Source: Rubripirellula sp.
GTDB taxonomy: Bacteria > Planctomycetota > Planctomycetia > Pirellulales > Pirellulaceae
Direction: 5' to 3'
DNA: 64,000 nt
Assembly: GCA_965216875.1 (NCBI GenBank)
Contig: OZ244207.1
Coordinates: forward strand, 4,960,001-5,024,000
How positions within the stretch are numbered: the stretch's first letter is position 1; every line of letters begins with the position of its first letter. The position numbers and the translations under genes were made by a program. This document shows, in pieces, positions 23,791 through 46,946 of this stretch. Below the pieces are notes generated by a model. That model did not search any database. It saw only the letters and a list, made by a program, of their open reading frames with translations, and was not told the origin of the DNA.

Positions 23791-24024
23791 TCAAAGCAAC
23801 TTACCAATGGCTGCGACGATCGCATCCTCACTTGGAAACTCGCCAGTCGCGAGCTTGGAATAGATCAGCTCACCGTCTACCGACACTTCAAAACAGCCAC
23901 CACTCGCCGGTTGAAGCTCAAGTCCGTCGAGCCGCTGTTTGTACTTCGTCAGAATCTTGGTCGCCAAACTGACGGCCTGCGGTTCGTAATTTCACGCTGC
24001 GCAATAACGCAAGTGGATCTTCAT
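23791..24024 (-). CDS. SelW/SelT/SelH (Rdx) family selenoprotein, 77 aa, CxxU (TGA at 23992-23994)
   Basis: MKIHLRYCAA-TGA-NYEPQAVSLA...GGCFEVSVDGELIYSKLATGEFPSED matches Rdx motifs on both sides of the TGA. Confidence 0.9.
23959..23977 (-). promoter_or_regulatory. Putative SECIS hairpin of the Rdx gene
   Basis: GGCCGUCA-GUU-UGGCGACC, 14 nt after UGA (one mismatch, one G-U pair). Confidence 0.65.
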
Positions 24025-24230
24025 TTCGGCTTCCCGTTTCACTTGTGTTGTCCACACCCGTCGCCAGCAAAGAAGTTTAGCCGAGTTGCTTGCATTTAGC
24101 AGCATCCGAGCGAGCGGGGCTTCGACAGGCAGTATTGTGACCCAATTCGCATTTTGATAACCCGTCATTGTGACGGCACACGCACTTCCGCAATCAATTG
24201 CTAGCAGAACGCCTCCGCCAAGCAACCATC

Positions 24231-25028
24231 ATGTCAAAACTCTCTGACCTTAGTCGCAAACTACTGACGCGCGTGGGATTCCGTTCATCGGGATGGTTGC
24301 CGCAGACCATGCGGGCAGACGACGTATTCATTGTTGGCTATCCGAAATCAGGTAGCACTTGGATGCGTTTTCAGATTGCCAATCTATTGCGAGAACCTGA
24401 AGGCGAAGAGATCGACTTTCACAACTATCGATTCCACGTCCCGGCGGTTGGTTCTGAGCACGAAGAAGTCGCTGGCGATGGACCACGTGTCCTCTCGACG
24501 CACGCTCCCTATCAACGGCAGATGAAGAAGGTGATTTACATCGTGCGAGACGGCCGCGATGTTTATGTTTCGTTCTATCATCACCTCAAGAGAACGCTAC
24601 CACCGGGAACAACCTTCAGTGAATTCCTTGCTCAAAAACAGTGGCCCTGCCGTTGGTCCGAGCACGTCAACGGTTGGCTCGACAACGCCAGGTTGGATCA
24701 ACTGTTGCTGGTTCGGTATGAGGACATGTTCACCGATGGTGTTGAGCAGCTTGCGAGGGTCGCCGAATTCGCAGGCTTGGATCGCAGTCGTGATCAAATT
24801 GCCGATGCCGTCGCACGATCAAGTTTCGATCGCATGAAACGAACCGAAACCGAAAAGGGTCGGTACAACAGCGAAGAAGGCCCCAAGAACTTTGTACGCA
24901 AAGGGGTCGCGGGCGATTGGACGACCACCTTCTCGCCAGCCGACATCGAACTCTTCAACGATTTGGAAGGATCGGGAATGAATCGTATGGGTTACCGGCT
25001 AATCGCTTCGAATCAACAAGCGGCCTAA
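24231..25028 (+). CDS. PAPS-dependent sulfotransferase
   Basis: YPKSGSTW 5'-PSB loop; RDGRDVYVS 3'-PB; RKGVAGDW. Confidence 0.9.
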   Translation: MSKLSDLSRKLLTRVGFRSSGWLPQTMRADDVFIVGYPKSGSTWMRFQIANLLREPEGEEIDFHNYRFHVPAVGSEHEEVAGDGPRVLSTHAPYQRQMKKVIYIVRDGRDVYVSFYHHLKRTLPPGTTFSEFLAQKQWPCRWSEHVNGWLDNARLDQLLLVRYEDMFTDGVEQLARVAEFAGLDRSRDQIADAVARSSFDRMKRTETEKGRYNSEEGPKNFVRKGVAGDWTTTFSPADIELFNDLEGSGMNRMGYRLIASNQQAA

Positions 25029-25105
25029 GTTTGTGGTAGCAACACCGCACTGTCCGTAGCTCGCAACGGCGAATCGCGGCTATCCAATGTCATGCGGAGC
25101 ATGAC

Positions 25106-26605
25106 CTACAACCCTGCATCACGTTTATCGAGCTTGCCAAATTCTGGCTTGGTCGGTTTGTAGGGTTTCATCTCGCCGTCGCGCGACATCAAAAATGTAT
25201 GTTCGCCGTAGCGAATCAGATGATGGCGGCGCACCATGTCCATGTTCCATTGAATCGGCGCCTCAAAAAGATTCATCGGACGAGCTTCGTCAGGCACGCC
25301 CACGGCAACAAGTGCTTCAATGCTGCTTTGCCAATTCGGTGAACTCGGCAGCGTTTCACTCCGCGACGGAGCGAGCTTGATCCACCCCACTGTGATTTGC
25401 CGGCTTCCTCGAATCCAGTTGATGGACGAGATGTACCCGATTTCGAGATGACGACCGCTGCGGCGCACGAAGCAATCACGAAGCTCTTTGTCGCCGAGCT
25501 TCGGGGGCGCCGGGAACAGGCTGCCGGTCAGGTGGATGTAACCATCATCCGCCGTCGCCACGCCGCTGCGATGCTCGGGTTCGACGTTGGCAACGGATGT
25601 TGAAACATCGCCGAGCGTTTTAAAGCCCGTCTTTTGCTTTTGATGGTCGATCCAGCGATAGTCTCCTGTCCAACACTGCCCGCCGCCCGCATCGAGAATC
25701 ACACAGCTTCCATCGGCACGAAACGAAATCCCAAACGTTGGATCCGATCCGTCCGCCGCAACTTCGATCCAATCACCGATCACTTCCTGTCGGTCCATTC
25801 CTGTCGGCCATACCCAATAGGTGACGCCAACGATGGCCAACACAAACAATCCACCAACAAGCACATCGGCACGTATCCTGATCGACTTTTTTGGTTTCCC
25901 CCGTCGCAAATCGGTACGAAGCTGTTCGCTGTAGTCTTCGAGACTTGGATCTTCTTCCAGTTCCTCGATCGGCCCAGCGAATTCATCAGCAATGTCGGCG
26001 GCTCGACTTGCCGGCGCGTTGGTTGCGTTTGGCGACTCCGACACGGGGCTCGATTGGACAACCGCCACCTGTGCGATTTGACTCTCCACCGGTGCTTCCG
26101 TTCTTCGCTCGCCGCGCCAACGCGAGTGGACCGGATGTGATGGGTCAACGCGTTGTGGGTGCGGCGCTGTGTTGGCAGCGGCAAGCCGCCCTTCCAAACA
26201 TGCCGCCAACACGTTGATACGTGTCACGGTGATCCATGGGTTTTGGTCACTGGTCGTTTCGGTACTCGGCGGAGGCTGACCATTGATCACTTGAACGAGT
26301 GCATCTTCGGGCAACATGCCGCGAACGGCGAACCCAATGAGTTCGCGAAGCTTGAAAGGACCGTCAAACGAATCGTTGACCCCAGTCAATCGAAACTCGG
26401 GAACATGCGTGCCGGCGGGATGGGGCAGGGGAGTCTGTTTTTGAGAAAACAGACCGATGTCGCCGGCACGCATCCACGGTCCATTTTCGGAACCGCCGAC
26501 CTGGGTCGCGGGAAGAACGATTCGTGCCAAGGCGGCTTCGCGCAATTCGATCCCCGTGAAAGGGCCGCAGACAGCGCGTTCGGTCTTGATGTAGAAATCA
26601 GTCAT
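25106..26605 (-). CDS. Membrane protein with two GYF_2/DUF4339-like domains
   Basis: Two GPF...L...A...G.L motifs; single TM helix near residue 250. Confidence 0.55.
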   Translation of the reverse strand: MTDFYIKTERAVCGPFTGIELREAALARIVLPATQVGGSENGPWMRAGDIGLFSQKQTPLPHPAGTHVPEFRLTGVNDSFDGPFKLRELIGFAVRGMLPEDALVQVINGQPPPSTETTSDQNPWITVTRINVLAACLEGRLAAANTAPHPQRVDPSHPVHSRWRGERRTEAPVESQIAQVAVVQSSPVSESPNATNAPASRAADIADEFAGPIEELEEDPSLEDYSEQLRTDLRRGKPKKSIRIRADVLVGGLFVLAIVGVTYWVWPTGMDRQEVIGDWIEVAADGSDPTFGISFRADGSCVILDAGGGQCWTGDYRWIDHQKQKTGFKTLGDVSTSVANVEPEHRSGVATADDGYIHLTGSLFPAPPKLGDKELRDCFVRRSGRHLEIGYISSINWIRGSRQITVGWIKLAPSRSETLPSSPNWQSSIEALVAVGVPDEARPMNLFEAPIQWNMDMVRRHHLIRYGEHTFLMSRDGEMKPYKPTKPEFGKLDKRDAGL

Positions 26606-26773
26606 CAACCACGGGCGACGGTAGCGAAACGGGGCGTTCCCAGAAATCCGCCCCACGTCGCATTGTAGCCGACACGTTCACAGCAGTCGCTGTGCCATTT
26701 CCTGAGCCGTGATCGCCGTAGCGACGCTCGCCCGAGCGTGGAAGTAGCGGCACCGACCTTTCATCAGAAACAT

Positions 26774-26838
26774 CGTCGCCTTTCGCTCCGCGAAAGGCGC
26801 GTAGGGTGACGCAACTTTCGCGGAGCGAAAGGCGACGA
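26774..26838. repeat. Palindromic repeat family 3
   Basis: tcgtcgcctttcgctccgcgaaag...ctttcgcggagcgaaaggcgacga. Confidence 0.8.
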
Positions 26839-26880
26839 TCAAGAATCACAGCCATCAGCCAGAGTGCCATCGGCACACGT

Positions 26881-26901
26881 GTCATGCACAGCATGACCTA
26901 C
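26881..26901 (-). repeat. GTAG-REP family 4 (GTAGGTCATGCTGTGCATGAC)
   Basis: Identical 21-mer at 56624-56644; 7-bp stem after GTAG. Confidence 0.75.
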
Positions 26902-26908
26902 GTTCACC

Positions 26909-28147
26909 CTATCGTGACTTGACGTCGTAGACCAACAACACGCTTTGATCGCGCAGGTACATTTTCCCGTTGGCGATCACAGGGTGAGCCCAAGCCCGTT
27001 CATCAGTCCGAGAGGGCTGATCAAAGTGACTCACTTCGATCATGTCATCTGTGGTCGCTTTGATCAAAGCGATCGGTCCCGATTCACTTCGCAGATAGAA
27101 GTGGCCATCAGCGTAAACCGTCGCTCCCTTGCCAATGCTTCGGGCATTGAAGTTCAACTCGCCCGATTCAATTTCGAGGCATCGAAACGTACCACCGCTC
27201 GATCCAAAGACATGATCGCCGAGCAGCAGGACACCACCGTGGTGATTGGCAATCGCTTTGCTGGCGTAAATCTCTTCGGTCGACCAGTCAGATCCGATTC
27301 GAAAACCGTTACACCCGACGCCGTACGATGAGGTGACAAATACGATGTCGCCTGAAACGACCGGTGTTGCAACGACTGCCGTCTTGCCTTCGCGATCGGC
27401 TTTCCAAATCAGCTTGCCTGTGTCGGGTTCGATCCCCGCAACACTTCGGCCGGTCAATTGTACATATTGCCGCTTGCCATGAATGGTGGCGACAATCACT
27501 GAAGAATAAGCTGCCGTGTCCGTCCACTCGGTGGTGCGCCAAAGCGTTTCGCCACTCTTACGATCAAGCGCGACGACCGTACCTTTGTTGCCGCCAGGGG
27601 TGCAGATCACTTTGTTGCCATCGACGAGTGGCGATTCACTGTAGCGCCACCCCGACATCATCTTGCCACCAAGATCGTCTTCGAGTTCGACCGACCAAAG
27701 CAGGTCACCACCCTCACGTTGCACACACGCGATGGTGCCATGTTGATTGAGCGTAAAGATTTGGTCGCCATCCACCGTCGGTGTACTGCGTGGTCCTTTG
27801 TAGCGTTTGTGACCGCCGCGCTCGCCGATCTTGGTCTTCCACGCAATCTGGCCATCGTCGTCCGAGAGCGCGATCAGGTAACAGCCGTCTTCGAGATCCC
27901 CGAGCGTGTAAACGTAGCCATTGGCCACCGCAACGCTCGAATAACCTTCGCCAAGTCCGTCAGCCTTCCACTGCATCGCTGGACCGCCCTCGGGCCACTC
28001 TTTAAGCAGACCGGTTTCCTTTGAAAGTCCATCCCGATTGGGACCACGCCACTGTGGCCAATCTTCGGCGACAACACTACTAGACAAAAACAGCGTAGCC
28101 GCAACGAATGACAGACACGCTCGGCGCGATAGGCGATCGACTTGCAT
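26909..28147 (-). CDS. PQQ-like/BamB-type beta-propeller protein (planctomycete-expanded family)
   Basis: Signal peptide; DWPQWRGPNRDG; repeated Trp-docking blades; WAHPVIANG. Confidence 0.85.
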   Translation of the reverse strand: MQVDRLSRRACLSFVAATLFLSSSVVAEDWPQWRGPNRDGLSKETGLLKEWPEGGPAMQWKADGLGEGYSSVAVANGYVYTLGDLEDGCYLIALSDDDGQIAWKTKIGERGGHKRYKGPRSTPTVDGDQIFTLNQHGTIACVQREGGDLLWSVELEDDLGGKMMSGWRYSESPLVDGNKVICTPGGNKGTVVALDRKSGETLWRTTEWTDTAAYSSVIVATIHGKRQYVQLTGRSVAGIEPDTGKLIWKADREGKTAVVATPVVSGDIVFVTSSYGVGCNGFRIGSDWSTEEIYASKAIANHHGGVLLLGDHVFGSSGGTFRCLEIESGELNFNARSIGKGATVYADGHFYLRSESGPIALIKATTDDMIEVSHFDQPSRTDERAWAHPVIANGKMYLRDQSVLLVYDVKSR

Positions 28148-28268
28148 GAGGATTGCTCGGTCGGTGGGAAGGGAGCAGCGTTCGACAACGACCGCCGCGG
28201 TAGGCATTGACGCAACATTCTAGCCTATCCGCGTCGGCCAAACCGCAACCCATCCCTCCGGCCGGGAA

Positions 28269-28742
28269 CTAGTGTGCCCGATGCGGGATCAACATCGCCA
28301 CGTTTTCAGCCTCATGATCCTCATGTTGCTCCAGCGCGGCAACAAACGATTCCACTTCATTGATCGCCGATTGCCACGACTCGAAGGGTGGCTCAAGTTC
28401 ATCAAGCCGATCCACCAAATCGTTCAACCGATCAAGCAACACTCGATGGTCGCGGATTGCCTGGCGCCGCGTTGCGCTGACCGCAACGCACTCAGGCGAG
28501 TATAAACCGGAGAGCTGGTTGGTGATCTCGTTCTCGCGTTGGAAGTGTTTGGCGAGTTGCCGCCGCAGCGACTTTAGCCGCAATGCGGTTTCGCCAAATC
28601 GTGGGATGCCTAGCTGACTCACGTCACTCATCCAATGTCGGACATCATCAAACTCTTCTTCGATTCTTCGGTCTTCGACCTTCCATTGACCGAAAAGGGT
28701 TTGGAGCCTTTCTTCGTAAATCACGTTCATCGTTCGACTCAC
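28269..28742 (-). CDS. Hemerythrin-like (HHE) domain protein
   Basis: HFQRE, DH and HEDHE helix motifs. Confidence 0.65.
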   Translation of the reverse strand: MSRTMNVIYEERLQTLFGQWKVEDRRIEEEFDDVRHWMSDVSQLGIPRFGETALRLKSLRRQLAKHFQRENEITNQLSGLYSPECVAVSATRRQAIRDHRVLLDRLNDLVDRLDELEPPFESWQSAINEVESFVAALEQHEDHEAENVAMLIPHRAH

Positions 28743-28842
28743 AGGGATGCCTCGGCAGTCCCGACGGGCTCAGCCGAGAGGGTAGATGCTTCTCGTCATC
28801 TTCTCTTATTAGGTGTGTCCGAGGTGAATTAAACAACTACTG

Positions 28843-28859
28843 TGCAGGTGAGATGCCAA
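28843..28859 (-). promoter_or_regulatory. Possible sigma54 -24/-12 promoter of the hemerythrin gene
   Basis: TTGGCATCTCACCTGCA (GG-N10-GC), about 100 bp upstream. Confidence 0.4.
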
Positions 28860-29227
28860 AGTGACCCGAATCCGAACAAGCGGTCTCAACTTTTTGAAAA
28901 CGATCGATAACGGCCCCGTTTGCGTTCAGAACCGATACAAGCAATACGCTGGGCGTGGCGTTTTGCCTCGGTTTTTCCCCGAGATTCGCGTGAATCTCCC
29001 TGGGTGGCTCAACGATTGGGCACAATCTCGTGCGCGGTATCGCCCACCAATGATCGCCGGCGACCACTTTTTGAAAAGGTCCACCCGATTCGCGGTCAAC
29101 AGCGCCCCGTCCCCACTTCCTTGACGCCCCTACTGTTGAGCACTATCGTCGGCAACTTCTCCGAACCAATGATTGTCTATTCCATCAAGTGTTCGCTCGA
29201 ACCCAATCCAAACTAGGGACGGTTTTG

Positions 29228-29944
29228 ATGGCACGTTCTCCCGCAGGACTGGTTGAACTCTTTGCTCCTCGTAGCGATTTGCTTCAAGACTTTTCGTTCG
29301 CAGATTTCCCATCGCGATTGTTGGGCTGGCATGGTCCGACGATCGATCTCGATGCGGGCGCAACCCACTATGGGTACATCGCAAGCGGCAATGCCGAAAT
29401 CGAGTTTGGCGATTATCGATACCCACTTTCCGCTGGCATGTATTTTTGTGTTCCGCATGCCATGCGATTGGTCGGAAATGGAACGGGCTTTATCGCGTCG
29501 CGAATCGACTACCGCGGACTGTTTCAGCTTGGCGGCCCCGTCGAATCGACCGGACGACTGAGGTACATCGATGGTTGTCGCGACACCCTGTTGATCGGAC
29601 CGCCGGTCATCGGCGATCCGTGCTTGAACTTGCTTCACATCCCACCGGACACGCGACAAACGTCGCACACCCATCCGTCCGAGCGTCTCGGGATGATCGC
29701 GGCGGGGCGAGGCGTTTGCAAAACGTTATCCGGAGACCTTCAACTCGAACCGGGCATGATCTTTTCGATCGAATCGGAGGGAGTGCATAGCTTCAACACA
29801 AACGATGAGTCACTGCTTGTCATTGCGTGGCACCCCGACAGTGATTGTGGCCCGTCCCACGAAGACCACCCCATGATCAATCGCACGATCATCGACGGGA
29901 TTTCGGCTTCAACGCTTGCGACCAAAGGAGAGTTGAATCGATGA
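29228..29944 (+). CDS. Cupin domain protein
   Basis: QTSHTHPSER and GVHSF cupin metal motifs. Confidence 0.8.
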   Translation: MARSPAGLVELFAPRSDLLQDFSFADFPSRLLGWHGPTIDLDAGATHYGYIASGNAEIEFGDYRYPLSAGMYFCVPHAMRLVGNGTGFIASRIDYRGLFQLGGPVESTGRLRYIDGCRDTLLIGPPVIGDPCLNLLHIPPDTRQTSHTHPSERLGMIAAGRGVCKTLSGDLQLEPGMIFSIESEGVHSFNTNDESLLVIAWHPDSDCGPSHEDHPMINRTIIDGISASTLATKGELNR

Positions 29945-30903
29945 AGTGTCCGAAGTGCGGCCACAACCATCCGGCAAAGCAGGGCATGAAATGCTCGAGC
30001 TGTCGCTATCAGTTTACTTTCAACCCAAAGTCATGGTCGTCACCGGGAATCACGGACGGAAAGTTTCTCTCGTACATTCGCGGCGCGAGCGCAAACGACA
30101 CGGTCTACTTCACGCGGAATCACTTGTATTCGGTCTACTGCCGAAAACAACGTCCTGCTCGTGGCTTTTGGATCGTTGCTGCCGTGATCGCAGCTGTCAT
30201 GAGCGCGGCATGGTTGTTGGATGAAGATCCCGCCTACGTTCGTGGCGTTCTCGCTCTCCTGTTTTGTGGTTTCATGATCTGGCGAGCCTTCGTCGTCCGG
30301 GCCAAGTGCGTGAAGAAAAAGAAGTTCTTCAAGTGGATCGATCAGTGGCAAGCGAAAGGTCACTTGATCGAAAAACTGATCGAAGCCCCAACGCTTCATC
30401 AGCCGCCGCCGCACTGGAAAGAGTCCGACATCTACGACTACGGTGTCGAGAAAATCGTGATCGTCGAGCGCGACATCTTGGTCGATTGGATGGTGCTTAA
30501 CAATGCTCACGCTCAGCAAAAGGCGCTCGTCATCAGCGAGAGCGGGTACCCAAGTTATCTAATGCCCATCGCCGAAAAGTTGCTGCGCGAGAATCCAACA
30601 CTCCCGATCCATTTGCTGCATGACGCAACCCAAAACGGATTGCAGATGGAAGCCCGCATCCGGCAAATGAACTTGCCCATCGCGGGACACCCGATCACCG
30701 ATTTGGGAATGAAACCCGACGATTTCAAACGCATTCGCCGCATCCGCAATGTTCATGACAGCGATGGAGGAGAACTGGAGATCGACTTGCTCGGATTCGG
30801 AATGCTCGCTGGCGGAATGGTGCTCTGCACGGAATTGGGGCTCGAGATTTCCGGTCTTCTGGATGGATCGGACGGGGCGGACGACGTCGGTGACTTTGGT
30901 TAA
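29941..30903 (+). CDS. Zn-ribbon + 2 TM + TOPRIM-like domain hypothetical protein
   Basis: CPKC...CSSC N-terminus; two TM helices; IVIVERD/SGYP/LLHDA resembles TopoVI-A TOPRIM motifs; ATGA overlap with the cupin gene. Confidence 0.55.
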   Translation: MKCPKCGHNHPAKQGMKCSSCRYQFTFNPKSWSSPGITDGKFLSYIRGASANDTVYFTRNHLYSVYCRKQRPARGFWIVAAVIAAVMSAAWLLDEDPAYVRGVLALLFCGFMIWRAFVVRAKCVKKKKFFKWIDQWQAKGHLIEKLIEAPTLHQPPPHWKESDIYDYGVEKIVIVERDILVDWMVLNNAHAQQKALVISESGYPSYLMPIAEKLLRENPTLPIHLLHDATQNGLQMEARIRQMNLPIAGHPITDLGMKPDDFKRIRRIRNVHDSDGGELEIDLLGFGMLAGGMVLCTELGLEISGLLDGSDGADDVGDFG

Positions 30904-30929
30904 TCGCCCTCGACAACGAGACTGCAACC

Positions 30930-32714
30930 TTGATTGATGCCATTGTCGGTTCTGTTGGTGCCAGCAGCGAAGAGCGATTGCGATCCATGGCGCAATCCAT
31001 TGCGCATCGCGGACGCTGGCGTGACGACCAATTTCGACAATCTTCTCATTGGTCGATCGCACGCATCGCTCATCCATGCACCACAACGATTGGGATCCCC
31101 ACAGGATCGCGTTTTGCGACCGACCGCGATTTGACGGTCGCCTTTTGTGGCTACTGCACGAGCACGTCTTTCTCTGGCCGCAAGGATGATCGTCCATTCT
31201 TGCAATTGATCGCCGATGAATATCGCAAGCACGGACTCGATTTCGCCAAGCCGGTTCGAGGGTCCTATTTGATCCTCGTGGCCGACCATGAATCGGGAAA
31301 AGTTCATATTGCTCGTGACGGAGCCGGGGGACGAACCCTGTTTTATGGCAAAGCGGGCGACCAATGGCTCTTTTCATGTGAACCAAAGTCGATCACCTCG
31401 CAGAGCGCCTTCTCAGCCAAAATCCGACCGGCGGCGCTTGCCCAGTACCTTTCGTTCAGCTTCACGCCAGGTGCCGGCACCATGCTGGAAAACCTGTACG
31501 AATTGCAATGCGGTCACGTGGTCACTCTCGAAGCGGGCCAAACGCCCAAGCTTCACAACTTCTTCCCGTTCGAACAGTTCGAATGGGATGGCGAACAACC
31601 GGACATCAGCGACCAACAATGGGTCGATCGCACTCGCGACGCCGTCGCGAGTGCGGTCACACAACGTCTTCCTCAAAGTGGCGAACCCGTTGGCGTCTTT
31701 CTTTCCGGCGGGCTCGACTCGAGCATCATCGCAGCGGAAGTCGCAAGGCAACATCAAGGTCCGGTCTATTCGTACGCATTGCACTTCGGTCCCAACTATC
31801 CGAACGAACTCTCCTTTGCCAAGTCAGTCGCTGATCGCGTAGGAACGAAACACCACGAGATTTTGATCGAACCAAAGAACTTCGTTTCGCGGATGCGCCA
31901 GATGGTTTGGCATCTCGATGAACCGATTGGCGATCCCATCACACAACCCAACTTCGAATTGGCACGTCGCGTTGCCGACGATGTTTGCGTCGTGTTCAAT
32001 GGCGAAGGTGGCGATCCGCTGTTTGGTGGCCCCAAAAACATTCCCATGATGATGCAGCATTGGTACGGAGTTCCACGAGAGAAAAACTTCCGCGAAAAAG
32101 CGTACCTGGCATCCTATCGCCGCGCTTATGAAGAATGGTCGCGTGTGTTGCATCCCAACATACGCGAGCAAATTGATCCCCAGCGCGACTTGGAAGCGAT
32201 TCTTCAACCCTACTTCGAAACCGACGCGCTGAATTCGTTTCTCAACAAACTGATGGCGATCAACATTCGTTTGAAAGGGGCGCACTTGATACAGCCAAAA
32301 GTCGAACGAATGCTCGCCGCATCAGGCCTGGTCCCACTCGCACCGTTGTTTGACGAGGATTTGATTGAACTCAGTTTTCAGATGCCGCCCACGATGAAAC
32401 TGCGCCAGGGGATTGAAAAGTGGGCTCTCAAACGTGCCTACGATGATGCCTTACCGAGCGGAATCATCGAGCGTCCCAAGAGCGGCATGCGAGTGCCGGT
32501 GCATTACTGGTTCCAGCGTGAAATGCGTCGCGTTGCCAAGAAAACGTTGTCTCGTCGCCGTCTCAAGTCCGCCGAACTGTTCGATCCCGCACGCGTCCGC
32601 CAACTGCTGGCCTACGATGTCGAAGAATCGTCCGGCCGTTATGGCATGCGGCTTTGGATGTTGATGACCTTCGAGCTTTGGCGAGAGCAACTGGTCGAAC
32701 GATCAGCCGCTTAG
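30930..32714 (+). CDS. Asparagine synthetase B-like ATP-dependent amide ligase lacking the N-terminal Cys
   Basis: LSGGLDSS PP-loop; NGEGGDPLFGG; EKWALKRA; RPKSG. Confidence 0.82.
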   Translation: MIDAIVGSVGASSEERLRSMAQSIAHRGRWRDDQFRQSSHWSIARIAHPCTTTIGIPTGSRFATDRDLTVAFCGYCTSTSFSGRKDDRPFLQLIADEYRKHGLDFAKPVRGSYLILVADHESGKVHIARDGAGGRTLFYGKAGDQWLFSCEPKSITSQSAFSAKIRPAALAQYLSFSFTPGAGTMLENLYELQCGHVVTLEAGQTPKLHNFFPFEQFEWDGEQPDISDQQWVDRTRDAVASAVTQRLPQSGEPVGVFLSGGLDSSIIAAEVARQHQGPVYSYALHFGPNYPNELSFAKSVADRVGTKHHEILIEPKNFVSRMRQMVWHLDEPIGDPITQPNFELARRVADDVCVVFNGEGGDPLFGGPKNIPMMMQHWYGVPREKNFREKAYLASYRRAYEEWSRVLHPNIREQIDPQRDLEAILQPYFETDALNSFLNKLMAINIRLKGAHLIQPKVERMLAASGLVPLAPLFDEDLIELSFQMPPTMKLRQGIEKWALKRAYDDALPSGIIERPKSGMRVPVHYWFQREMRRVAKKTLSRRRLKSAELFDPARVRQLLAYDVEESSGRYGMRLWMLMTFELWREQLVERSAA

Positions 32715-32760
32715 GTGCAGGACTTTTCCGCGATCCGCGCATCCAACCCTCGCGTACGGT

Positions 32761-32828
32761 CTCTTCATAGTCGGGGCCTCTTCATAGTCGGGGCCTCTTC
32801 ATGGTCGGGGCCTCTTCATAGTCGGGGC
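32761..32828 (+). repeat. 17-bp tandem repeat x4 (ctcttcatagtcggggc)
   Basis: Three exact copies and one single-mismatch copy. Confidence 0.9.
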
Positions 32829-32874
32829 AACGAGACGCCTGTTCGTTTGAAAGTCATTCACTGCGAGAGCCACG

Positions 32875-33108: not shown

Positions 33109-33170
33109 GACGACGTTCAAACTTGGGCCCCGCGTCGCCTCGTACTCTCATCGAGTGTGATTGGTTGAAT

Positions 33171-33232
33171 GCCGCCTTTCGCTCCGCGATAGCTGCATCC
33201 GCTAACGCAAGTCTTGCTGAGCAAAAGGCGAC
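33171..33232. repeat. Palindromic repeat family 3 (degenerate)
   Basis: gccgcctttcgctccgcgat...gagcaaaaggcgac. Confidence 0.6.
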
Positions 33233-36847: not shown

Positions 36848-36854
36848 GCGCCTG

Positions 36855-38792: not shown

Positions 38793-38814
38793 TTAGGCAC
38801 TGCGCACGTGAGTT

Positions 38815-38855
38815 GTAGGCCGGATCAAGGAGCGACAGCGAAACAGATCCGGGAT
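38815..38855 (+). repeat. GTAG-REP family 2
   Basis: gtaggccggatcaaggagcgacagcgaaacagatccgg. Confidence 0.75.
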
Positions 38856-39388
38856 GTTTCGATGAGCGTCCCCATCCGCCTACACAAACTCAACAATAAC
38901 ATCGAGCGAACACGCTTTAGCCAACCCCTAACACACGTTAGGAACATTGTTCGCACGCAAACGTTGACAAGGCCTCGGTTTGCCCCATACTCGTCCTACC
39001 AAATGGCCGGTACCACATGGTTCGTACCACATGTCTGGTACCACATGGTGCGGGGCGATCCCGTTGAAAGCAGCCACCACAAACGGCTCGCCCCGTTTCA
39101 CCATTCATCCGACACCCTCTTTCTCTTTCGAATAGCAACTTTCGTTTCGCGCCGCTTTGCGTGAAGCGACAACCGAATAGGACGCGCAGCGTGACGTGCG
39201 TCCTTCGCCGCGAACCTTGTGGTGAGAGCCCTCGCCACAAGGTTCTTTTTGATCCTGCGGCGTTCTTTTTGATCCTGCGGCGCAATGTCCCCTTCGAGCC
39301 TGGAACGTATTCGGGCCAGCGAAACGTGCTGGTAATACGCTAGACTGTCGCCTTTGACCAGAATCAGAATCTGTCTTCAGGGCGCGGC

Positions 39389-40876
39389 ATGGACGCAGCA
39401 AACTCACCGCACATCGTGATCGTCGGCGCCGGTATGAGTGGGCTTTGCTTGGCGATTCAGTTGAAGCGTGCCGGCTTTCACAACATCACTCTGTTGGAAG
39501 CCTCCAGCGAAGTTGGCGGCACATGGAACAAGAACACGTACCCCAACGCGGGTTGCGACGTTCCTTCGTACCTCTATTCCTATTCGTTTGCGTCGAATCA
39601 TTGCTGGTCGATGAAGTACGCGCGCCAGCCCGAGATCCTTGACTATTTCCGGCAATGCGCCGAGCGATTCGATGTCCGGCGATCTATAAGATTCGAGACG
39701 ATGGTCGAATCGGCGACCTTTGATGAAGCGACGGGACGTTGGAAAGTACGGACCGATGCAGGCGACGAAATTGTGGCTGACGTCTTCGTGAGTGCCGTTG
39801 GCCAACTCAACCGTCCCGCGATTCCGTCGTTTCAATCGGCAGACGTGTTTGAGGGCGAAGCGTGGCACAGTGCCCAATGGAATCACGACTACGAGCTTGC
39901 AGGCAAGAACGTTGCCGTGGTCGGAAACGGTGCCAGCGCCATTCAATTCATGCCAATCATCGCCGAGCAATGCAAGAAAGTGGTGTTGTTTCAACGCACC
40001 GCAAGCTGGATCCATCCACTCCACAACTACCGTTACCCCAAGTGGGCGCAGCGATGTATGCGGTGGATACCCTTTGCGGCCAAATTACACCGACTCTCTA
40101 TCTTCCTGAGTTGCGAGTGGCGAATCGTTGCGTTCCGCGAAGGGAGCAAATTGAACAAGGAATACGCGCGTTGGTTGCGCCGCCAAATGCGAAGACGACT
40201 GCCCAATGAAGATTGGGAAAAACTGATTCCCACCTATGCACCAGGGTGCAAACGCATCCTCTTGTCGAGCGACTACCTCGAAACACTTTCTCGCGACGAT
40301 GTCGAAGTCGTCCTCGATCCGATTACCGGTTTCACCAAAGACCAGATTGTGACCGGTGAATCGAGTTACGATGTCGATGCGGTGATCTACGCAACAGGAT
40401 TTCGCGCGACCGAATTCTTGCAACCCATGACCATCCGCGGCCGCGGCGGCAAAACACTCGAGCAAGAATGGAAAGCCCGGCCCAAGGCATACCTCGGTCT
40501 TGCTGTGCCGGAGTTCCCGAACCTGTTCATGTTGTACGGTCCCAACACGAACCTCGGGCACAACTCGATCATCTATATGGTCGAGCAACAAGTCAACTTC
40601 ATCATCAAGTGCCTCAAACGCATGCGAAACCGATCGGCCAACACGATCGAAGTTCGCCGCGAAGCACTTGATCAATACGATGCTCAGGTGCAGTCGGAAC
40701 TTGCCTCATCGGTTTGGGCCGGCGACTGCACGAACTGGTACAAGTCAGCCGATGGAACGATCCCCAATAACTGGTGGGGATCGGCGATGGCCTATCGCCG
40801 CCGACTCAAGCGTCCTCGGTTCGATAACTTCAAGTTTGGAACAGCAAAGGACGCTGCCGCCAGCGGCGAGGGTTAG
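39389..40876 (+). CDS. Baeyer-Villiger-type flavin monooxygenase
   Basis: GAGMSG; GGTW...YP; FEGEAWHSAQW (FxGxxxHxxxW); GNGASA; ATGF. Confidence 0.92.
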   Translation: MDAANSPHIVIVGAGMSGLCLAIQLKRAGFHNITLLEASSEVGGTWNKNTYPNAGCDVPSYLYSYSFASNHCWSMKYARQPEILDYFRQCAERFDVRRSIRFETMVESATFDEATGRWKVRTDAGDEIVADVFVSAVGQLNRPAIPSFQSADVFEGEAWHSAQWNHDYELAGKNVAVVGNGASAIQFMPIIAEQCKKVVLFQRTASWIHPLHNYRYPKWAQRCMRWIPFAAKLHRLSIFLSCEWRIVAFREGSKLNKEYARWLRRQMRRRLPNEDWEKLIPTYAPGCKRILLSSDYLETLSRDDVEVVLDPITGFTKDQIVTGESSYDVDAVIYATGFRATEFLQPMTIRGRGGKTLEQEWKARPKAYLGLAVPEFPNLFMLYGPNTNLGHNSIIYMVEQQVNFIIKCLKRMRNRSANTIEVRREALDQYDAQVQSELASSVWAGDCTNWYKSADGTIPNNWWGSAMAYRRRLKRPRFDNFKFGTAKDAAASGEG

Positions 40877-40900
40877 GGCAGTAGGAACCTTATCGGCGAG

Positions 40901-42766
40901 TCACTTGATCTCAACCGTCTGGCGAAGCTGAGCTGGGGGCAAACAAAAGGTGTCACGACACACTTCGTAGTCGACCAAGACACGCAACCTCGTTGTCGCG
41001 GCAACGTCATCAACCCGGACTTTCCGACTGAATTGCGCGATCGCTTGGTAGATCTTTTCTTGTGGATTTTGCCTCGAAGGCTGGCCCTTTGAACGGGTCC
41101 ACTTTCCCAGCGGTGCGACACCGCCTGGCAAGTCGAACTTCAGTCGCACTGGAACATGGGCGCCGCCTTCAGGAACTTCCGAGTAAAGGTGCCATCCCGG
41201 TTTGATGGAGATCGTCACCTTCACGTCGTAGACGCCCGGCTGATCCTCAACCGGATCGGCGACCGTCACCATGCTTAACTGGTCCGTCGAAACCTTGTCG
41301 TCAGTCTCGAAGGTGTCCACCTTTTCTTCAGGCTTGACGTCTTTCTCAGGCTTTGCGTCCGGTGATTCTGCCGCTGAGCCCGCGGACGAAACCGCGTGCT
41401 TGGGCGCATCTGGATTCCGTCGGAAGTACCAAACTTGACTGATACGAGATTCCTTTTCGATGAACTCTTTGTTCCGCTCGCTCAGCTTTTCGAACCTACC
41501 TTGAAATGGCTTCATCGCCTCTTCGAAGGCCTCTTGATCGTAGTCCCCGGCCTCAAACTTCTTGGCAAACTCTTTTTGTACCGCTTGGCTTTCCGCCGTC
41601 AGGGCTTCAATCGCCTGCCGCACTTCTTCCTGGGCGACTTTTTCTTCGTCGGTCATCTCGCGCAGGTGATAGACGTCTGAGTAGTCGCCAACGATCAAGT
41701 CGAGCCAACCATCGTTGTCATAGTCAACAACGCAGATCTGGCTTCGAACGCCCAGTGCCGCTTCGTCGTCCTTGCCAAGGTATTGCATCTTGAACTTTGA
41801 TTCCGAACCAGCTGCGATCAGTGGTCGGTACGCTTCGAACTTTGGCTCACCTGTTGAACCTTGCGTCACGTTGCGATACCAGCCAACTGCGCCGTCACCC
41901 GAACCGACGACCAAGTCCCATTTGCCGTCGTTGTCCCAATCAGCAGCAACGGGCGCAGCGTGCATGTTGACGTGCAAGGGTTCCTCACCAACGTTCACTT
42001 GGATCGCGTCGACCGAGTACTTCGGTGTTTCGCGCGTGCCGATGTTCGTGCGCAAAAACAAGTCGCCCGAGAACGAACCTATCAAAACGTCGAGATCGCC
42101 GTCGCCATCCCAATCGACGGTCGTCGGCCAGCTTCCAAAGGTCGCGACTCGCAACGTGATTGAATCGGTATCACCAGAGTTCTGCTTCTCTTCGTCAAGC
42201 TCATTCCACTTGGCAAGCTCGACCGGATGGTGGACCAGTTCGATTCCTGACTCGTCACGAATCTTTTCGACTTCGGCATACTTGCCATCACCCAAACCGC
42301 GAAACAGATAGATGTCGCCGGGGTCGTACGAACCGCTGATCATGTCGAGCGTGCCGTCGTTGTCGTAGTCCACAAACTGTGGACTTGACGCGATGCATCA
42401 GTAAACCGGTGTCTTGGCATCGACACCACCTGCTTGAAGTTTGCCTTTGGACGTGTACTCAGGCTTTTCGTCGTTGGCCGTGTTTTCGAAGAACCAAAAG
42501 AAGCCTGGAAAATCCCCCACCAACAGATCGCGGTCACCATCACCATCGACGTCCGCCACGCAGGGTCCAGCGTGAGCAATGTTTGACAATTGACCGATGT
42601 CGATCGGCTTGCCGTCCGCTTGGATGCGAACTCCTTTGTCTAGATCGCCGACCACTCGATCTTTCGTCAAGTCCTGCTCGCCGGCGATCGCCGTTGGAAG
42701 CGCCAGCAGCCCCATCAACAGCGTGCATGAACCACGCCCCACCTTCCTCAATAACCGACAACACAT
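40901..42766 (-). CDS. Exported FG-GAP/VCBS repeat protein with C-terminal DsbD-N-like domain; in-frame TGA (42398-42400) in a U-C motif, candidate selenoprotein of 621 aa
   Basis: ORFs 42398-42766 and 40901-42373 are in one frame: KTPVY-TGA-CIASSPQFVDYDNDG; DxDGDGDxDL repeats on both sides; YEVCRDTFCLPP. Confidence 0.8.
42367..42385 (-). promoter_or_regulatory. Putative SECIS hairpin
   Basis: AGUCCACA-GUU-UGUGGACU, perfect 8-bp stem 12 nt after UGA. Confidence 0.75.
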
Positions 42767-42854
42767 TTAGGTCATCTCCCACGTGCGTGTTGCAAGAAAC
42801 GGAATTCCCACCAGAAGAAATTGTACCGGGCGCACGGCCAGCACGCTCGAATCG

Positions 42855-43757
42855 CTAGGAGCGACCCACTCCGATCTCGAGTACGCGGTTTTCGGAGGCC
42901 GAGGTCTCGATCAGCGCGGCGACTTGGGTCGCCAAATGGACATCGCCCCAGGTGATGGGGAAGGGTGTTCCGGCGAGGATTGCTTTGGCAAATTCGTGCA
43001 AAAGAGAATCCTCGGCATGCTCATCGTCGCCATTCGATGCGGCGAGCTCAGGTCCCGTCTTGCCCGGAACGTTTTGCCCCTGAACCTTTTGACCCTGTCC
43101 TTTTTCATCAAAGAGTTGGAAACGACGTTGGCTATCGACTTGAGCCGTAGCCTGAGTGCCCACCAGCGTGAGCGAATTGCATGCTTCGCCCGGAAACTTT
43201 GTGCAGGTGTCGATCAATGCCGTCGCCCCCGATGCAAAATCGAGATGTGCCTGAGCCAACCCATCTCGCAAAACGCCATAGACGCTCGAGGGTACAGAGC
43301 CGATCAACCACATCACCAAATCGAGTTGCTCAGCCAACCCTTGTTTCGGAGATTGTTGAGTGTTCGCCCATGCGTGAATCCGGATCAAGCGAGGTTCGCC
43401 GAGCTCGCCCATAAGGAGTGCCTTTTTGAGCTGAACCATCGCCGGCTCAAACCGCAACATCATCGCCGGCATCGAACGACCACTCGAGCCCATCACGGAG
43501 ATCATGTCTGGCTCAACCAGAAAGGGATCGATTGTCAATTGATGCCCGCCTCGTTGAATCATTCCCAAGTGTTCCAGCGGCGATTCCGTGACAACCGCTC
43601 GAGCCGAATCGAGATCGGTCTGAGCAGCGATCAAGCGATTCGTTGCCGCGGCCTTTTGGAGTCGTTCGCCACGATCATCTTGAACGCCAACCCAGATCGC
43701 AACTTGGCGAGTTGGATTCGAAGCGTGTTGCATTTCCCTGGGATCCATCTCGCTCAA
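42855..43757 (-). CDS. Gfo/Idh/MocA-like oxidoreductase (divergent)
   Basis: LRFEP...K..L..GELGEP and LDLVMWLIG motifs; Rossmann part appears degenerate. Confidence 0.5.
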   Translation of the reverse strand: MSEMDPREMQHASNPTRQVAIWVGVQDDRGERLQKAAATNRLIAAQTDLDSARAVVTESPLEHLGMIQRGGHQLTIDPFLVEPDMISVMGSSGRSMPAMMLRFEPAMVQLKKALLMGELGEPRLIRIHAWANTQQSPKQGLAEQLDLVMWLIGSVPSSVYGVLRDGLAQAHLDFASGATALIDTCTKFPGEACNSLTLVGTQATAQVDSQRRFQLFDEKGQGQKVQGQNVPGKTGPELAASNGDDEHAEDSLLHEFAKAILAGTPFPITWGDVHLATQVAALIETSASENRVLEIGVGRS

Positions 43758-43806
43758 TGGTGCTCGCGAAAAGTGAAGGCGACCGCTTGATGAATGCGGC
43801 GGGAGC

Positions 43807-46200
43807 TTATCTTACTTCAAGGTAGGGATTGATGGTTTGCGCCTTTTCGACGCCCTTGGACGTGACCTGATACCGCCCCACTTGGATGGAAACATAGCGC
43901 AGGCTCGCACACTTCGCGAGCTCGAACAAACCTTCGTCCGTGACGTTGGGCGATTCGATAATGAGGGTCTCAAGTTTTGGGGATTGGCCGAGGTGCTTGA
44001 GCCCTTCGTCACTCACCGCCACTTTGCCCAGGTAGAGTGAGGTCAGCGAGGGAATCCTGGACAAATGCAAACACGCTTGATCACCGAGTGATGGCGTATT
44101 GCGTATTTTGAGTTCTTTGAGTTCGGGCAGTTTCTGCAGGTGGATGAGGTATCGCCCCTTGATCGCTTCGGAGATCAACTCCACTTCTTTCAGCTCGGGG
44201 CAATGGGCCAGGTAAGGCAACCCCGAGCCGGTCATCAATTCCGATTGAAAATTGAGTCGCTGTAAATTCGGCAAGGCTTCAAACGCTTGCATGCCGTGAT
44301 CCGTAATCGTTGACTTTCGTGTCAGCAGGTACTCGAGTTGTGGGAACTGATTCAGTTTTTGAAATTGTCGATCGTCAAGTGACGCTGAGACAGATTCGAA
44401 TGCCGTGACATTCGGCAGCGGCTCATCAAGTTTCCAGATCGGAGCGTGGGCGACCTTGCCACGAACGGAGATGCTTTTCAACTTGGTGAGTGCTTGCAGA
44501 GGCGTCAGGTCCAAGGTGCGCTGAATCGCTTCAATCTGAACGGTTTCCAGTTGAGGCATCGACAGCATGTCGGTGATCGACCCTTGCCCCGAAAAGGGCG
44601 TTTGCCAGCGAGTGTCATTGTCAAACAGGCTGCCATGACCGTTGACGCGCATCGAAACGCCGGGATAGCGAGCCTGCAGTTGGGCAAGACCACCGCGAGT
44701 CACGGGGCAGGGCGTGATGACCAAACGCCTGAAACCCGCCGGCAACTTGAGGCCAACAAGCTCATCATCAGACAATTTCGGATCATCGACAATGAGCTCT
44801 TTCAATCCGCTCAACTCTGCAATGCGACCAAGCTGATGCGGTGCGATACGTTCGAGCCACAAGCCTTCGATTCCGCGGAGCGCGGCGACTTCGTCCAAAT
44901 CCCACGACACCTTTCCTGACGATTCAAGCTCAGGCATCACCGACGGTGGACCAGCGGTGTGCAGGTCGTACATTCGACCACGCGTGCCCAACGGTGTGAG
45001 ATGAAGGTCCGCGATCTGACCTGGCCAATGAAGCACGGGTCTGAGTCGATTGGAAAAAAACGGTCGAAGGAAAAGAAGGGGCACGACGGACAAGTTCCGA
45101 AGCTTGGCAGCTTCGATCGCCTGGGCTTGAGTTGGCGACAACTCGGTGCGAATCGTCAACTCCAAGTCAGGACGTGCCTTCGCCAAACGCTCAATCGCCT
45201 CTTTGCTAAACCGACCCGATAGCTCAACGCGTCTTAGCGGCTGCTTTGCATTGCCCACAACTTCGAGCGAGCGATCCGTCAAATTACCACTTAGCGTGAT
45301 CGATTCGATCGAGTTCATTTGCGTCAGCGACTGCGTCGCTTGATCCGAAATTCCCGAACCAATCAGATTGACCTCTTGTAACTTTCGACATCGGGCAATG
45401 CTTTCAGCGTCCTCATCACTCGCGCCAACAAATCGCGAAGCAAACAACTCGAGGTTTGGTAGAGTCGGCAGCACATCCACGAGACGCGAGGGCAAGTCGT
45501 CGGCATAGGTCAACTTTGAAACCGGACATCCATCCAGACGATGAAACTGGTCGTAGTACACGCCGGACCGAGACAAGTCGAGCTGTTGGAGGTTGGGGAG
45601 TTTCGAAACGTCACCTAGCCCCGGACCGAGCACCCCCGAACCGAGCGTCAATTCACGCAGCGAAGGTATCTTCAACAGGTGTGCAAGTCCGGCATCCGAA
45701 ACACCTGTCTCATGAATATCCAATGCCACCAGTTGTTTGCAGTTGGCAAGCGGAACGAGCCCATCGTCGGTAAGGTGCGTTCGCCAAAGTGATAAGCGTT
45801 CAAGTTGTTCCAAACGAGCGATGTACTTCATCCCCTCGTCGCCAAGATGGGAACGATTGAAGTAGGCGCGTTTCAAGTTTGACAGGTGAGTGATCGGCGC
45901 AATCGAATCGTCATTGAGCATTGGCGATCCGGCGCGAATCTGAACGGCCAAGACGAATCGCTCGGGATCGAGCTTGGCAATCCAACTTGGTCGGACGCCG
46001 ATCGTTTGAATCTCGGCACCCTTTTCGGCCAGCTGTAGACTCGCCTCATGCTGGCGATAGTAGAAGACGTAGAAGTGAAGCCAGACCGCCAGCAGGATGG
46101 CTAGAAAGGTAACCATCACCAGCAGCGTACGTAGCCGCCAGCGCAGCCCCCACTTTTTCGAGTTTGCCTTGATGTCGTGCCCCGGCACCTGCTCACTCAC
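43807..46200 (-). CDS. Membrane-anchored leucine-rich repeat protein
   Basis: WRLRTLLVMV N-terminal TM; many LxxLxL..T.VSD.GL repeats. Confidence 0.85.
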   Translation of the reverse strand: MSEQVPGHDIKANSKKWGLRWRLRTLLVMVTFLAILLAVWLHFYVFYYRQHEASLQLAEKGAEIQTIGVRPSWIAKLDPERFVLAVQIRAGSPMLNDDSIAPITHLSNLKRAYFNRSHLGDEGMKYIARLEQLERLSLWRTHLTDDGLVPLANCKQLVALDIHETGVSDAGLAHLLKIPSLRELTLGSGVLGPGLGDVSKLPNLQQLDLSRSGVYYDQFHRLDGCPVSKLTYADDLPSRLVDVLPTLPNLELFASRFVGASDEDAESIARCRKLQEVNLIGSGISDQATQSLTQMNSIESITLSGNLTDRSLEVVGNAKQPLRRVELSGRFSKEAIERLAKARPDLELTIRTELSPTQAQAIEAAKLRNLSVVPLLFLRPFFSNRLRPVLHWPGQIADLHLTPLGTRGRMYDLHTAGPPSVMPELESSGKVSWDLDEVAALRGIEGLWLERIAPHQLGRIAELSGLKELIVDDPKLSDDELVGLKLPAGFRRLVITPCPVTRGGLAQLQARYPGVSMRVNGHGSLFDNDTRWQTPFSGQGSITDMLSMPQLETVQIEAIQRTLDLTPLQALTKLKSISVRGKVAHAPIWKLDEPLPNVTAFESVSASLDDRQFQKLNQFPQLEYLLTRKSTITDHGMQAFEALPNLQRLNFQSELMTGSGLPYLAHCPELKEVELISEAIKGRYLIHLQKLPELKELKIRNTPSLGDQACLHLSRIPSLTSLYLGKVAVSDEGLKHLGQSPKLETLIIESPNVTDEGLFELAKCASLRYVSIQVGRYQVTSKGVEKAQTINPYLEVR

Positions 46201-46583
46201 GTTGTCTGTTCATCCCTCGATGCGAGATCGCGCATCAATCACACCACCTTTATACTCCGGCGAGAACGACGATGCGCTGTCACTACCTTCGGCCAGACAG
46301 CGGGGCCTCGCCCATGTCCCCAGCCGGTCAACGTCCCGACGGGGTCACCCGTCCCTGACTTTGAAATGCCGTCCGATGCCGCAAATCAGTGGCGGAAGGA
46401 CTGCCAAACAGGCGATTTGTCATTGAAGTGACGGCTGTCCCGTTCGGCCGCCGACCGCGGGTGAAGTGTAAGCTCGTCCACGTGATGAGGCTATTTCACC
46501 TACGCAATGGGTGGTCGCCGGGCTAACCTGTCACCAGTCAACGTTAGTTATCCTTCCTCTTAACACGCGAGGAGTTTCATTCA

Positions 46584-46946
46584 ATGAAACGATCGTCTTT
46601 ACTGCTGCCCATCGCGATGCTGGTCGCGATCGGCTGTTCGGCCGAACCTGAGGCAACGGTTGATTCCAATGCCACAGAGTCGACCCAAACCGTACAAACT
46701 CCAGCTGGAACCGATTCCGAGGCTGTCACCTTTGTCAGTCTCAAAGTTCCCAACATGGTCTGAGGAGGCTGTGCCGCTTCGGTCCGAAGCGATCTGTCCA
46801 AAATCGCAGGTGTCAGCGATATCAAAACCGACATCCCCAACAAGACCTGTTCGTTCAAGATCTCTGATCCTAACGTTGACTACGAGGCGGAACTGAAGAA
46901 GTACGCCGAAACGAACACGCACTTGGCTGAATACACCATTCAGTAG
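46584..46946 (+). CDS. Lipoprotein with HMA domain, MxUxxC motif (TGA at 46761-46763), candidate selenoprotein of 120 aa
   Basis: GAGGAG RBS; lipobox VAIGC; LKVPNMV-TGA-GGCAASVRSDLSKIAGVSDIKTD; TAG stop followed by a terminator; absent from the ORF track. Confidence 0.85.
46775..46791 (+). promoter_or_regulatory. Putative SECIS hairpin
   Basis: CGCUUCG-GUC-CGAAGCG, perfect 7-bp stem 11 nt after UGA. Confidence 0.75.

Follow-up and report, generated by a model that had tools for sequence, protein, structure and literature searches.

Three unrelated genes within 23 kb of a planctomycete chromosome are each interrupted by an in-frame UGA codon that is followed by a short hairpin. Are these UGAs read as selenocysteine (Sec), and if they are, what do they say about selenium use in this organism? 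The DNA comes from Rubripirellula sp. (GenBank assembly GCA_965216875.1, contig OZ244207.1). The window, the whole stretch of 64,000 nucleotides that was analyzed, covers positions 4,960,001-5,024,000 of a single-contig genome of 8.26 Mb with a G+C content of 55%. Genome positions, all above 64,000, refer to the whole contig; all other positions follow the window numbering. The genes encode a small protein of the SelW type (gene a), a protein with an FG-GAP beta-propeller (gene b) and a lipoprotein with an HMA domain (gene c).

It is very probable, judging from the sequence, that the standard bacterial pathway decodes the three UGAs as selenocysteine, and that the genes belong to a set of at least 16 in this genome. 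The first-pass annotation of the window, made without database searches, had already taken them to be recoded. Family fit, the conservation of TGA or Cys at the site and the presence of the machinery make selenocysteine much the best reading. In all three genes a position conserved as UGA or Cys is followed by a conserved hairpin with an apical G. The UGA occupies the catalytic or metal-binding Cys position of the Rdx and HMA families, and in the FG-GAP protein the first position of a Cys-Cys dyad. The interest lies in which selenoproteins the genome encodes rather than in the selenocysteine insertion sequence (SECIS).

Three genes with UGA at a cysteine position

Gene (a) (24024..23791, minus strand; 77 amino acids) is a member of the SelW/SelT/SelH (Rdx) family. 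Reading the UGA at 23994-23992 as residue 11 joins both pieces into the motif Y-C-A-A-U at residues 7-11 (C8-A-A-U11), in which U stands at the U position of the family CxxU motif. A single Pfam domain (Rdx, PF10262) then spans the UGA, with a full-length match at E=5e-21 and 75.1 bits against a cut-off of 22.6, and NCBIfam TIGR02174 scores 72.9 bits against 34.2. The N-terminal CxxU, the full-length profile match and the small size are those of the SelW-like/Rdx proteins. With the Campylobacter-type equivalog NF041051 the score is 79 bits against a cut-off of 88, which makes it a member of the subfamily only. Relatives were sampled as one genome from each of 60 genera in the same family; in the 42 homolog rows that these yielded, TGA is retained in 34, and the site is TGA in all 20 of the orthologs examined. 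The product would be a CxxU thiol-selenol oxidoreductase of the SelW/Rdx type, small and cytoplasmic.

Gene (c) (46584..46946, plus strand; 120 amino acids) has a lipobox, LVAIGC, judged by eye, with the lipobox Cys at residue 18. Its UGA, at 46761-46763, is residue 60 and stands where the MxCxxC metal site has its first Cys; the site here reads M58-V-U60-G-G-C63. Again a single Pfam domain spans the UGA (HMA, PF00403; 36.3 bits against a cut-off of 24.8). In the related genera TGA is retained in 19 of 22 homolog rows; among the orthologs the codon is TGA in 15 and a Cys codon in two (TGC, TGT). The HMA fold and the Sec in the MxCxxC site are shared with the HMA selenoproteins of NCBIfam (NF045683, MerT/CopZ fusion-like; NF041115, UxxU) and, in fold and site, with MerP and CopZ. 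It is unlike NF045683 and NF041115 in being a stand-alone lipoprotein with UxxC, neither UxxU nor a MerT fusion, and in scoring far under their cut-offs. The NCBIfam matches to MerP, CopZ and HMA selenoprotein models are weak and below threshold. By analogy, the product may be a periplasmic lipoprotein metallochaperone whose Sec-x-x-Cys site would bind Cu(I), Hg(II) or other soft metals, and Sec in place of the first metal-binding Cys should raise the affinity for them.

Gene (b) (42766..40901, minus strand; 621 amino acids) combines an FG-GAP (integrin/CRTAC1-like) beta-propeller with a DsbD_N-like domain. Its UGA, at 42400-42398, is residue 123, aligned to the leading Cys of a CC dyad and giving U123-C124; a second pair, CxxxxC (C-R-D-T-F-C), lies toward the C-terminus, and the N-terminus looks, by eye, like a signal peptide. 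The two export signals that the first-pass annotation had seen, here and in gene (c), are thus found. The Pfam matches, to FG-GAP_3 (E=2e-22, 79.9 bits) and to DsbD_N (PF11412; E=5e-9, 36.7 bits against a cut-off of 25, residues 514-614), place it among the FG-GAP/integrin-type propellers and, together with the Cys pair, among the DsbD_N-type domains. There is no NCBIfam model for it, with no family at E <= 0.01. In an AlphaFold2 model (mean predicted local distance difference test score, pLDDT, 83.6) the FG-GAP propeller, modeled at high pLDDT, occupies residues ~37-370, followed by a two-helix coiled coil (373-433) and an Ig-like DsbD_N-type domain (~497-620), and Foldseek matches the model to integrin alpha subunits, CRTAC1 and the fungal lectin PVL. 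The U-C dyad lies just ahead of the DxDxDG loop of the second blade.

The alignment of gene (b) with its homologs supports this assignment of residue 123. Of 17 aligned full-length homologs, 15 have I-Y-C-C-I-G-S-S-P where gene (b) has V-Y-U-C-I-A-S-S-P. The motif-bearing loci in the related genomes comprise 12 with TGA-Cys and two with Cys. When 80 loci from species representatives (Planctomycetota, Verrucomicrobiota and others) were collected, 76 spanned the site, of which 46 are TGA-Cys and two Cys-Cys. Homologs in the protein databases fall into two classes: full-length proteins, which cover 90-97% of the query region, and many others covering 66%, which begin just after the UGA. This second class is the trace left by the same kind of mis-annotation in other records. 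The public protein for gene (b) itself is a 490-amino-acid fragment that starts after the UGA, bearing out the prediction that mis-annotation hides selenoproteins. Gene callers cut at UGA, and selenoproteins are consequently absent or shortened in public databases.

Thioredoxin reductase has a C-terminal Cys-Sec dyad, and in both proteins an eight-membered selenenylsulfide ring between the vicinal Cys and Sec could serve as redox center. In gene (b) the order is Sec-Cys, the dyad is internal in a propeller loop, the protein is extracytoplasmic by its N-terminus, and there is no flavin domain. A selenenylsulfide is probably an intermediate in the cycle of the dyad. The Cys pair of the fused DsbD_N-like domain is a plausible internal reductant that may restore it.

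Selenoproteins in marine planctomycetes have been described before. Table S9 of Kim et al. (2016; PMC4807772) gives ten candidates in one genome, among them FG-GAP/ASPIC-UnbV genes termed hypothetical, in which the nearest database match has Gly at the site. By description these resemble gene (b): they are FG-GAP/CRTAC1-type propeller genes of marine planctomycetes that an in-frame UGA divides, and a SECIS is predicted for most of them. They differ in the Gly of the closest match and in that no motif or family was defined in that source, whereas gene (b) has a conserved U-C/C-C dyad and the DsbD_N-like fusion. No FG-GAP or VCBS selenoprotein family was found named in the literature covered, which included the main texts of the 2026 review, deep-Sep and BSepDB, the last without its family table S2. 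If confirmed, the FG-GAP Sec-Cys family would be among the larger unlisted bacterial selenoprotein families, given TGA-Cys at 46 of 76 loci.

The genome encodes the components needed for decoding UGA as Sec by the SelB/SECIS-dependent route. Adjacent selD, selA and selB genes at genome 325-331 kb all score above curated cut-offs in profile searches (249.3, 507.5 and 343.5 bits, respectively), and Aragorn finds a single tRNA-SeC, with anticodon UCA, at genome 7,784,436-7,784,530. A search for further tRNAs with this anticodon and for SelB paralogs, as had been suggested, showed that tRNA-SeC is the sole tRNA with a UCA anticodon and that the remaining SelB-model matches are ordinary translational GTPases below the cut-off. 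The sel genes are 4.6 Mb distant from the three genes of the window, in accord with the observation that none of these adjoins them. In the standard pathway SelD would make selenophosphate, SelA would convert Ser-tRNA(Sec) to Sec-tRNA(Sec), and SelB would bind Sec-tRNA(Sec) and the mRNA hairpin starting 11-14 nucleotides after the UGA and, competing with release factor 2, would bring Sec to the ribosome.

Two minor observations concern these genes. The selD match (genome 325282-326163) lies inside an open frame of 749 codons without in-frame TGA, which suggests that SelD may be fused to another domain. An EF-Tu/SelB-like GTPase match at genome 390949-392115 (155 bits, below the selB cut-off) lies in a 477-codon frame with one in-frame TAG.

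The hairpins and the competing readings

The first-pass annotation had described a UGA followed by 11-14 nucleotides, a stem of 7-8 bp and a GUY loop with the loop G at +19 to +23, and a base-by-base reading gives exactly this. In gene (a) the hairpin GGCCGUCA-GUU-UGGCGACC (23959..23977, minus strand) follows a 14-nucleotide spacer; its stem, GGCCGUCA/UGGCGACC, has 7 pairs and one C.A mismatch, and the loop GUU at 23969-23967 places the G at nucleotide 23 after the UGA. In gene (b), AGUCCACA-GUU-UGUGGACU (42367..42385, minus strand) has a 12-nucleotide spacer, a perfect 8-bp stem, AGUCCACA/UGUGGACU, and the loop GUU at 42377-42375, with the G at nucleotide 21. In gene (c), CGCUUCG-GUC-CGAAGCG (46775..46791, plus strand) has an 11-nucleotide spacer, a perfect 7-bp stem, CGCUUCG/CGAAGCG, and the loop GUC at 46782-46784, with the G at nucleotide 19.

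These hairpins are conserved with the UGA. The GUU hairpin of gene (a) is kept in 20 of 20 orthologs, in 18 of them with a folding energy (dG) <= -5 kcal/mol, and RNAalifold gives 5 pairs, two with compensatory changes (21-33, CG16/GC3/UA1; 24-30, CG19/UA1). That of gene (b) follows the codon in 10 of 12 TGA homologs and in neither of the two Cys homologs. For gene (c) a hairpin at dG <= -5 is found in 14 of 15 TGA orthologs as against 0 of 2 Cys orthologs, and three of the 6 pairs given by RNAalifold have compensatory changes.

How specific is such a hairpin? A strict descriptor was used: the loop has the form [ACG]?G?GU[UCG]N?, the stem has 5 bp or more, dG is <= -5 kcal/mol, and the loop starts 14-29 nucleotides after the UGA. 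Under this test the signal greatly exceeds chance. It is present at 11 of 12 Sec-UGAs validated by family and at 7 of 705 confident true TGA stops; a hairpin equally common after true stops, which was to have counted against the proposal, is not what is seen. Among all scored TGAs it occurs at 3,203 of 200,407 (1.6%). In a set of 157 candidates picked by coding potential alone, and thus agnostic of hairpins, it marks 9 of the 11 validated sites and none of the remaining 146. The cleanest control is the comparison within five families, gene (b) and four others: 27 of 35 orthologs that keep TGA have the hairpin, in contrast to 0 of 22 with Cys or another codon. Looser definitions were of no use. 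One requiring a stem of at least 6 bp and a G early in the loop was rejected, being satisfied about as often by true stops (7.7%) and the background (6.9%) as by candidates (7.2%); in general such definitions fit ~7-11% of all TGAs without enrichment, and only the strict descriptor combining GU loop and energy separated Sec sites from stops.

The covariance model proposed as a further check was also built. From 13 in-register hairpins (model R1, 0.555 bits per position) it gave 4 matches at E <= 10 genome-wide, of which 3 were training sequences and 1 was false; the false match, at genome 3022971-3022997, lies in a ferredoxin-like open reading frame (ORF) with no in-frame TGA upstream. The hairpin of gene (b) was the top match in the genome (25.1 bits). 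The model is unable to find sites alone because it holds too little information. Rfam at its gathering thresholds gave no match in the window. The methodological lesson is that the hairpin is highly diagnostic given a coding context and useless as a stand-alone covariance model.

The proposal that these hairpins define a SECIS of this lineage did not hold. The loops at other validated sites vary (GGUC, GGUCU, AGUUG, CGUGA, GGGU), with loop-G offsets up to ~+30, and GU[UC] is found in the loop of 13 of 16 validated sites. Triloops of GUU or GUC with an A-U or C-G closing pair are common in this genome, which is a preference and not a distinct type. The loop of the SECIS of Escherichia coli fdhF matches the pattern of an apical loop containing GU. 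When the window genes are set beside the SelB-dependent intragenic SECIS of E. coli fdhF and the bSECISearch consensus, the hairpin likewise starts ~11 nucleotides downstream and an apical-loop G, here in GU, lies ~20 nucleotides from the UGA; selA, selB, selC and selD are all present, and there is no essential difference. Both the spacing and the GU apical loop are generic for bacteria, and the hairpins are of the general bacterial SECIS type, in which conservation of an apical-loop G has been described (PMC1794560).

Several observations weigh against reading the three UGAs as Sec codons, or against what is proposed for the products. Single-sequence folding energies are unremarkable, with z-scores of -0.8 (a), -1.6 (b) and -0.6 (c). 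The minimum-free-energy fold of gene (a) is another hairpin; the conserved one, present in all 20 orthologs and with compensatory changes, is the GUU hairpin and not this alternative. In gene (b) the strict hairpin is absent in two of the 12 TGA homologs, and the stem encodes the conserved peptide SPQFVD, so that conservation of the hairpin is partly confounded with that of the protein. Gene (c) scores under the cut-offs of every NCBIfam HMA selenoprotein model (21.4 against 375 bits for NF045683, 21.2 against 95 for NF041115) and does not belong to any of these equivalogs. The functional roles given above for genes (b) and (c) are drawn from domain analogy only.

Could another amino acid be inserted, or none? 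Readthrough of UGA as cysteine or another standard residue, dependent on the SECIS or on context, had been named as an alternative by the first-pass annotation. Cys at the same position in some orthologs means that a Cys product would be functional, but a complete dedicated Sec pathway is retained, which would be pointless were Cys the product, and TGA rather than TGC or TGT is maintained over dozens of genera together with a hairpin of the SelB type; we regard this alternative as improbable. Slightly less probable still is that the UGAs are true stops, in fresh nonsense pseudogenes or between adjacent genes in the same frame. The public gene calls do split gene (b), with the 490-residue product beginning after the UGA, and most same-frame TGA candidates in the genome are indeed adjacent genes, no Pfam domain crossing the TGA in 252 of 263. 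Single Pfam domains cross the UGA in genes (a) and (c), however, and homologs of gene (b) read through with Cys; TGA is conserved across genera, as are the protein sequence on both sides and the hairpin, and no start codon with a separate domain follows the UGA.

Finally, a genome-wide or broad reassignment of UGA, for example to Trp or Gly, can be dismissed with near certainty, as had been argued from genes of the window that end at TGA. No support for it was found. TGA ends 1,364 of 3,900 confident long ORFs, and a strong coding signal stops at TGA in the 705 cases used above as true stops. Stop-codon usage thus already refutes reassignment, and tRNA-SeC is the only tRNA with the matching anticodon.

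A selenoprotein-rich planctomycete genome

To place the three genes in the genome, a hexamer coding model was trained on long ORFs, and the 200,407 TGAs preceded by 8 or more open codons and followed by 3 or more were scored. There were 264 candidates with a coding signal on both sides, or with downstream coding and either a hairpin or a nearby Cys. The readthrough translations of 263 were scanned against Pfam, the remaining one being too short (19 amino acids). A Pfam domain spans the UGA in 11; gene (b), validated by alignment, makes 12.

The TGAs of these 12 genes, in genome positions, are at 333089 (FmdB), 353597 (YciW/AhpD-like), 1259663 (rhodanese), 1386418 (Trx7-like), 1685310 (ArsC family), 1772173 (ResA/Prx-like, W-U-P-H-C), 4481819 (deiodinase/Prx-like, C-L-T-U), 4983994 (SelW, gene a), 5002400 (FG-GAP, gene b), 5006761 (HMA, gene c), 6090558 (BCP/PrxQ) and 8114242 (DUF3179, W-U-H-L-C). 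The Trx7-like case, weak in itself, is confirmed by TGA in 19 of 20 homolog rows; the DUF3179 protein is confirmed by its 14 best homolog rows. NCBIfam gives (seleno)protein names to several of the 12, among them the ArsC family member (143 bits against a cut-off of 85), FmdB and the YciW-related protein. SelW-like, Prx-like, ArsC-like, rhodanese, AhpD-like, FmdB and DUF3179 selenoproteins are already among those catalogued in PMC13188914.

Four more candidates, without a family match, were validated through comparison of TGA and Cys in orthologs, which brings the total to 16. A protein of 1,116 amino acids with the motif GG-x-U-PG-x-K-S (TGA at genome 3658658; gene 3656706-3660608) has TGA at 7 and Cys at 5 of 12 loci and matches no family over the 301 residues that surround the site; it likely represents an uncatalogued selenoprotein family. 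A CGGGG-U-GGGSC protein (TGA at genome 4039386) has Cys in 2 orthologs, and an FT-U-NNA protein (genome 3179718) has TGA in 7 of 7. A small GRALG-U-TFTVP protein is encoded between selB and the Sec-containing fmdB (TGA at genome 332624, region 332432-334400). Its frame of ~94 codons contains the motif P-[KR]-R-[VI]-R-G-S-C-x-G-R-A-L-G-U-T-F-T-V-P; TGA is found in 8 of 8 orthologs, a strong GGUUC hairpin is kept in 8 of 8 related genomes, and neither Pfam nor NCBIfam gives a match. About five of the 16, including the FG-GAP U-C family, are without any selenoprotein family model.

The figure of 16 is a lower bound, as the filter, which requires at least 8 codons upstream and at least ~5-10 downstream, misses Sec within a few codons of a terminus. 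Two further small candidates, at genome 7588361 and 5359479, are unconfirmed; the former (CNG-U, 48 amino acids) has no homolog in the 60 related genomes. Six-frame searches with the families, made as a check of recall, revealed no missed member: 3 of 24 AhpC-TSA matches have TGA, all 3 in the candidate list, and TGA is found in 0 of 8 DUF1573 and 0 of 18 thioredoxin matches.

Does this bear out the large hidden selenoproteome suggested from the window? In part. The genome is selenoprotein-rich, since a 2006 criterion puts the line at six or more genes (PMC1794560) and at least 16 are found. It is nevertheless far below the record selenoproteomes of 57-63 genes (PMC13188914; PMC13326102). Nor can the density in the window be extrapolated: there is about one gene per 500 kb, not one per 8 kb, and the window holds one of two local clusters. 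These comprise three genes each within 23.2 kb, at genome 332624-353597, adjoining the sel operon, and at 23992-46763 of the window; when genes were placed at random in 20,000 simulations, two such clusters appeared in 0.04%. At least 16 selenoproteins in a planctomycete widen a picture of selenium use so far dominated by anaerobic Deltaproteobacteria and Clostridia.

Exported redox or metal-binding proteins were also predicted, and about seven of the 16 have export signals by eye: the FG-GAP, HMA, Trx7-like, ResA-like, deiodinase-like, BCP and DUF3179 proteins. A bolder view is that the selenoproteome is largely extracytoplasmic, that its centerpiece is an uncatalogued, widespread FG-GAP Sec-Cys family, whose member here has a DsbD_N-like fusion that would suggest a periplasmic selenium redox relay, and that GG-x-U-PG, FT-U-NNA, CGGGG-U-GGGSC and GRALG-U-TFTVP mark four more new families. 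We put this forward tentatively, as a possibility that may well fail in this full form.

Several kinds of candidate were set aside. An ArsR-type regulator (genome 4034363), a GATase (1554573) and an Fe-dependent repressor (7772538) were rejected, their Pfam domains ending before or starting after the TGA. None of 122 TGAs selected on the strict hairpin first had, by eye, a redox motif together with a coding signal on both sides. A BLAST comparison for Sec/Cys paralogs within the genome had limited power; many matches align TGA with R or W, pointing to repeats, antisense frames or pseudogenes. Within the window, the run of in-frame TGAs found between 19.1 and 20.7 kb on the plus strand is an artefact, the antisense of a gene for 1,270 amino acids (18818..22630, minus strand). 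The antisense frame concerned, 18803-21385 (plus), has ten in-frame TGAs, a positive coding score and one strong hairpin, and illustrates how antisense can mimic genes with multiple Sec residues.

The genes lying between the three Sec genes are unrelated; among them are a methyltransferase, a sulfotransferase, a BamB-like protein, a hemerythrin, an asparagine synthase, a cytochrome c/HEAT protein, hydrolases, a flavin monooxygenase and a leucine-rich repeat (LRR) protein. The named homolog records include Gemmataceae, Novipirellula and Pirellulaceae, and the relatives are planctomycetes.

Aragorn also reports a tRNA with a CUA (amber) anticodon, labeled tRNA-Pyl by the program, at genome 3282034-3282109 and one with a four-base anticodon (tttc) at genome 3442059-3442132. 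At genome 591000-632700 there are ~50 tRNA genes in arrays on one strand, which resemble the degenerate tRNA gene clusters of planctomycetes mentioned by Kim et al. (2016; PMC4807772).

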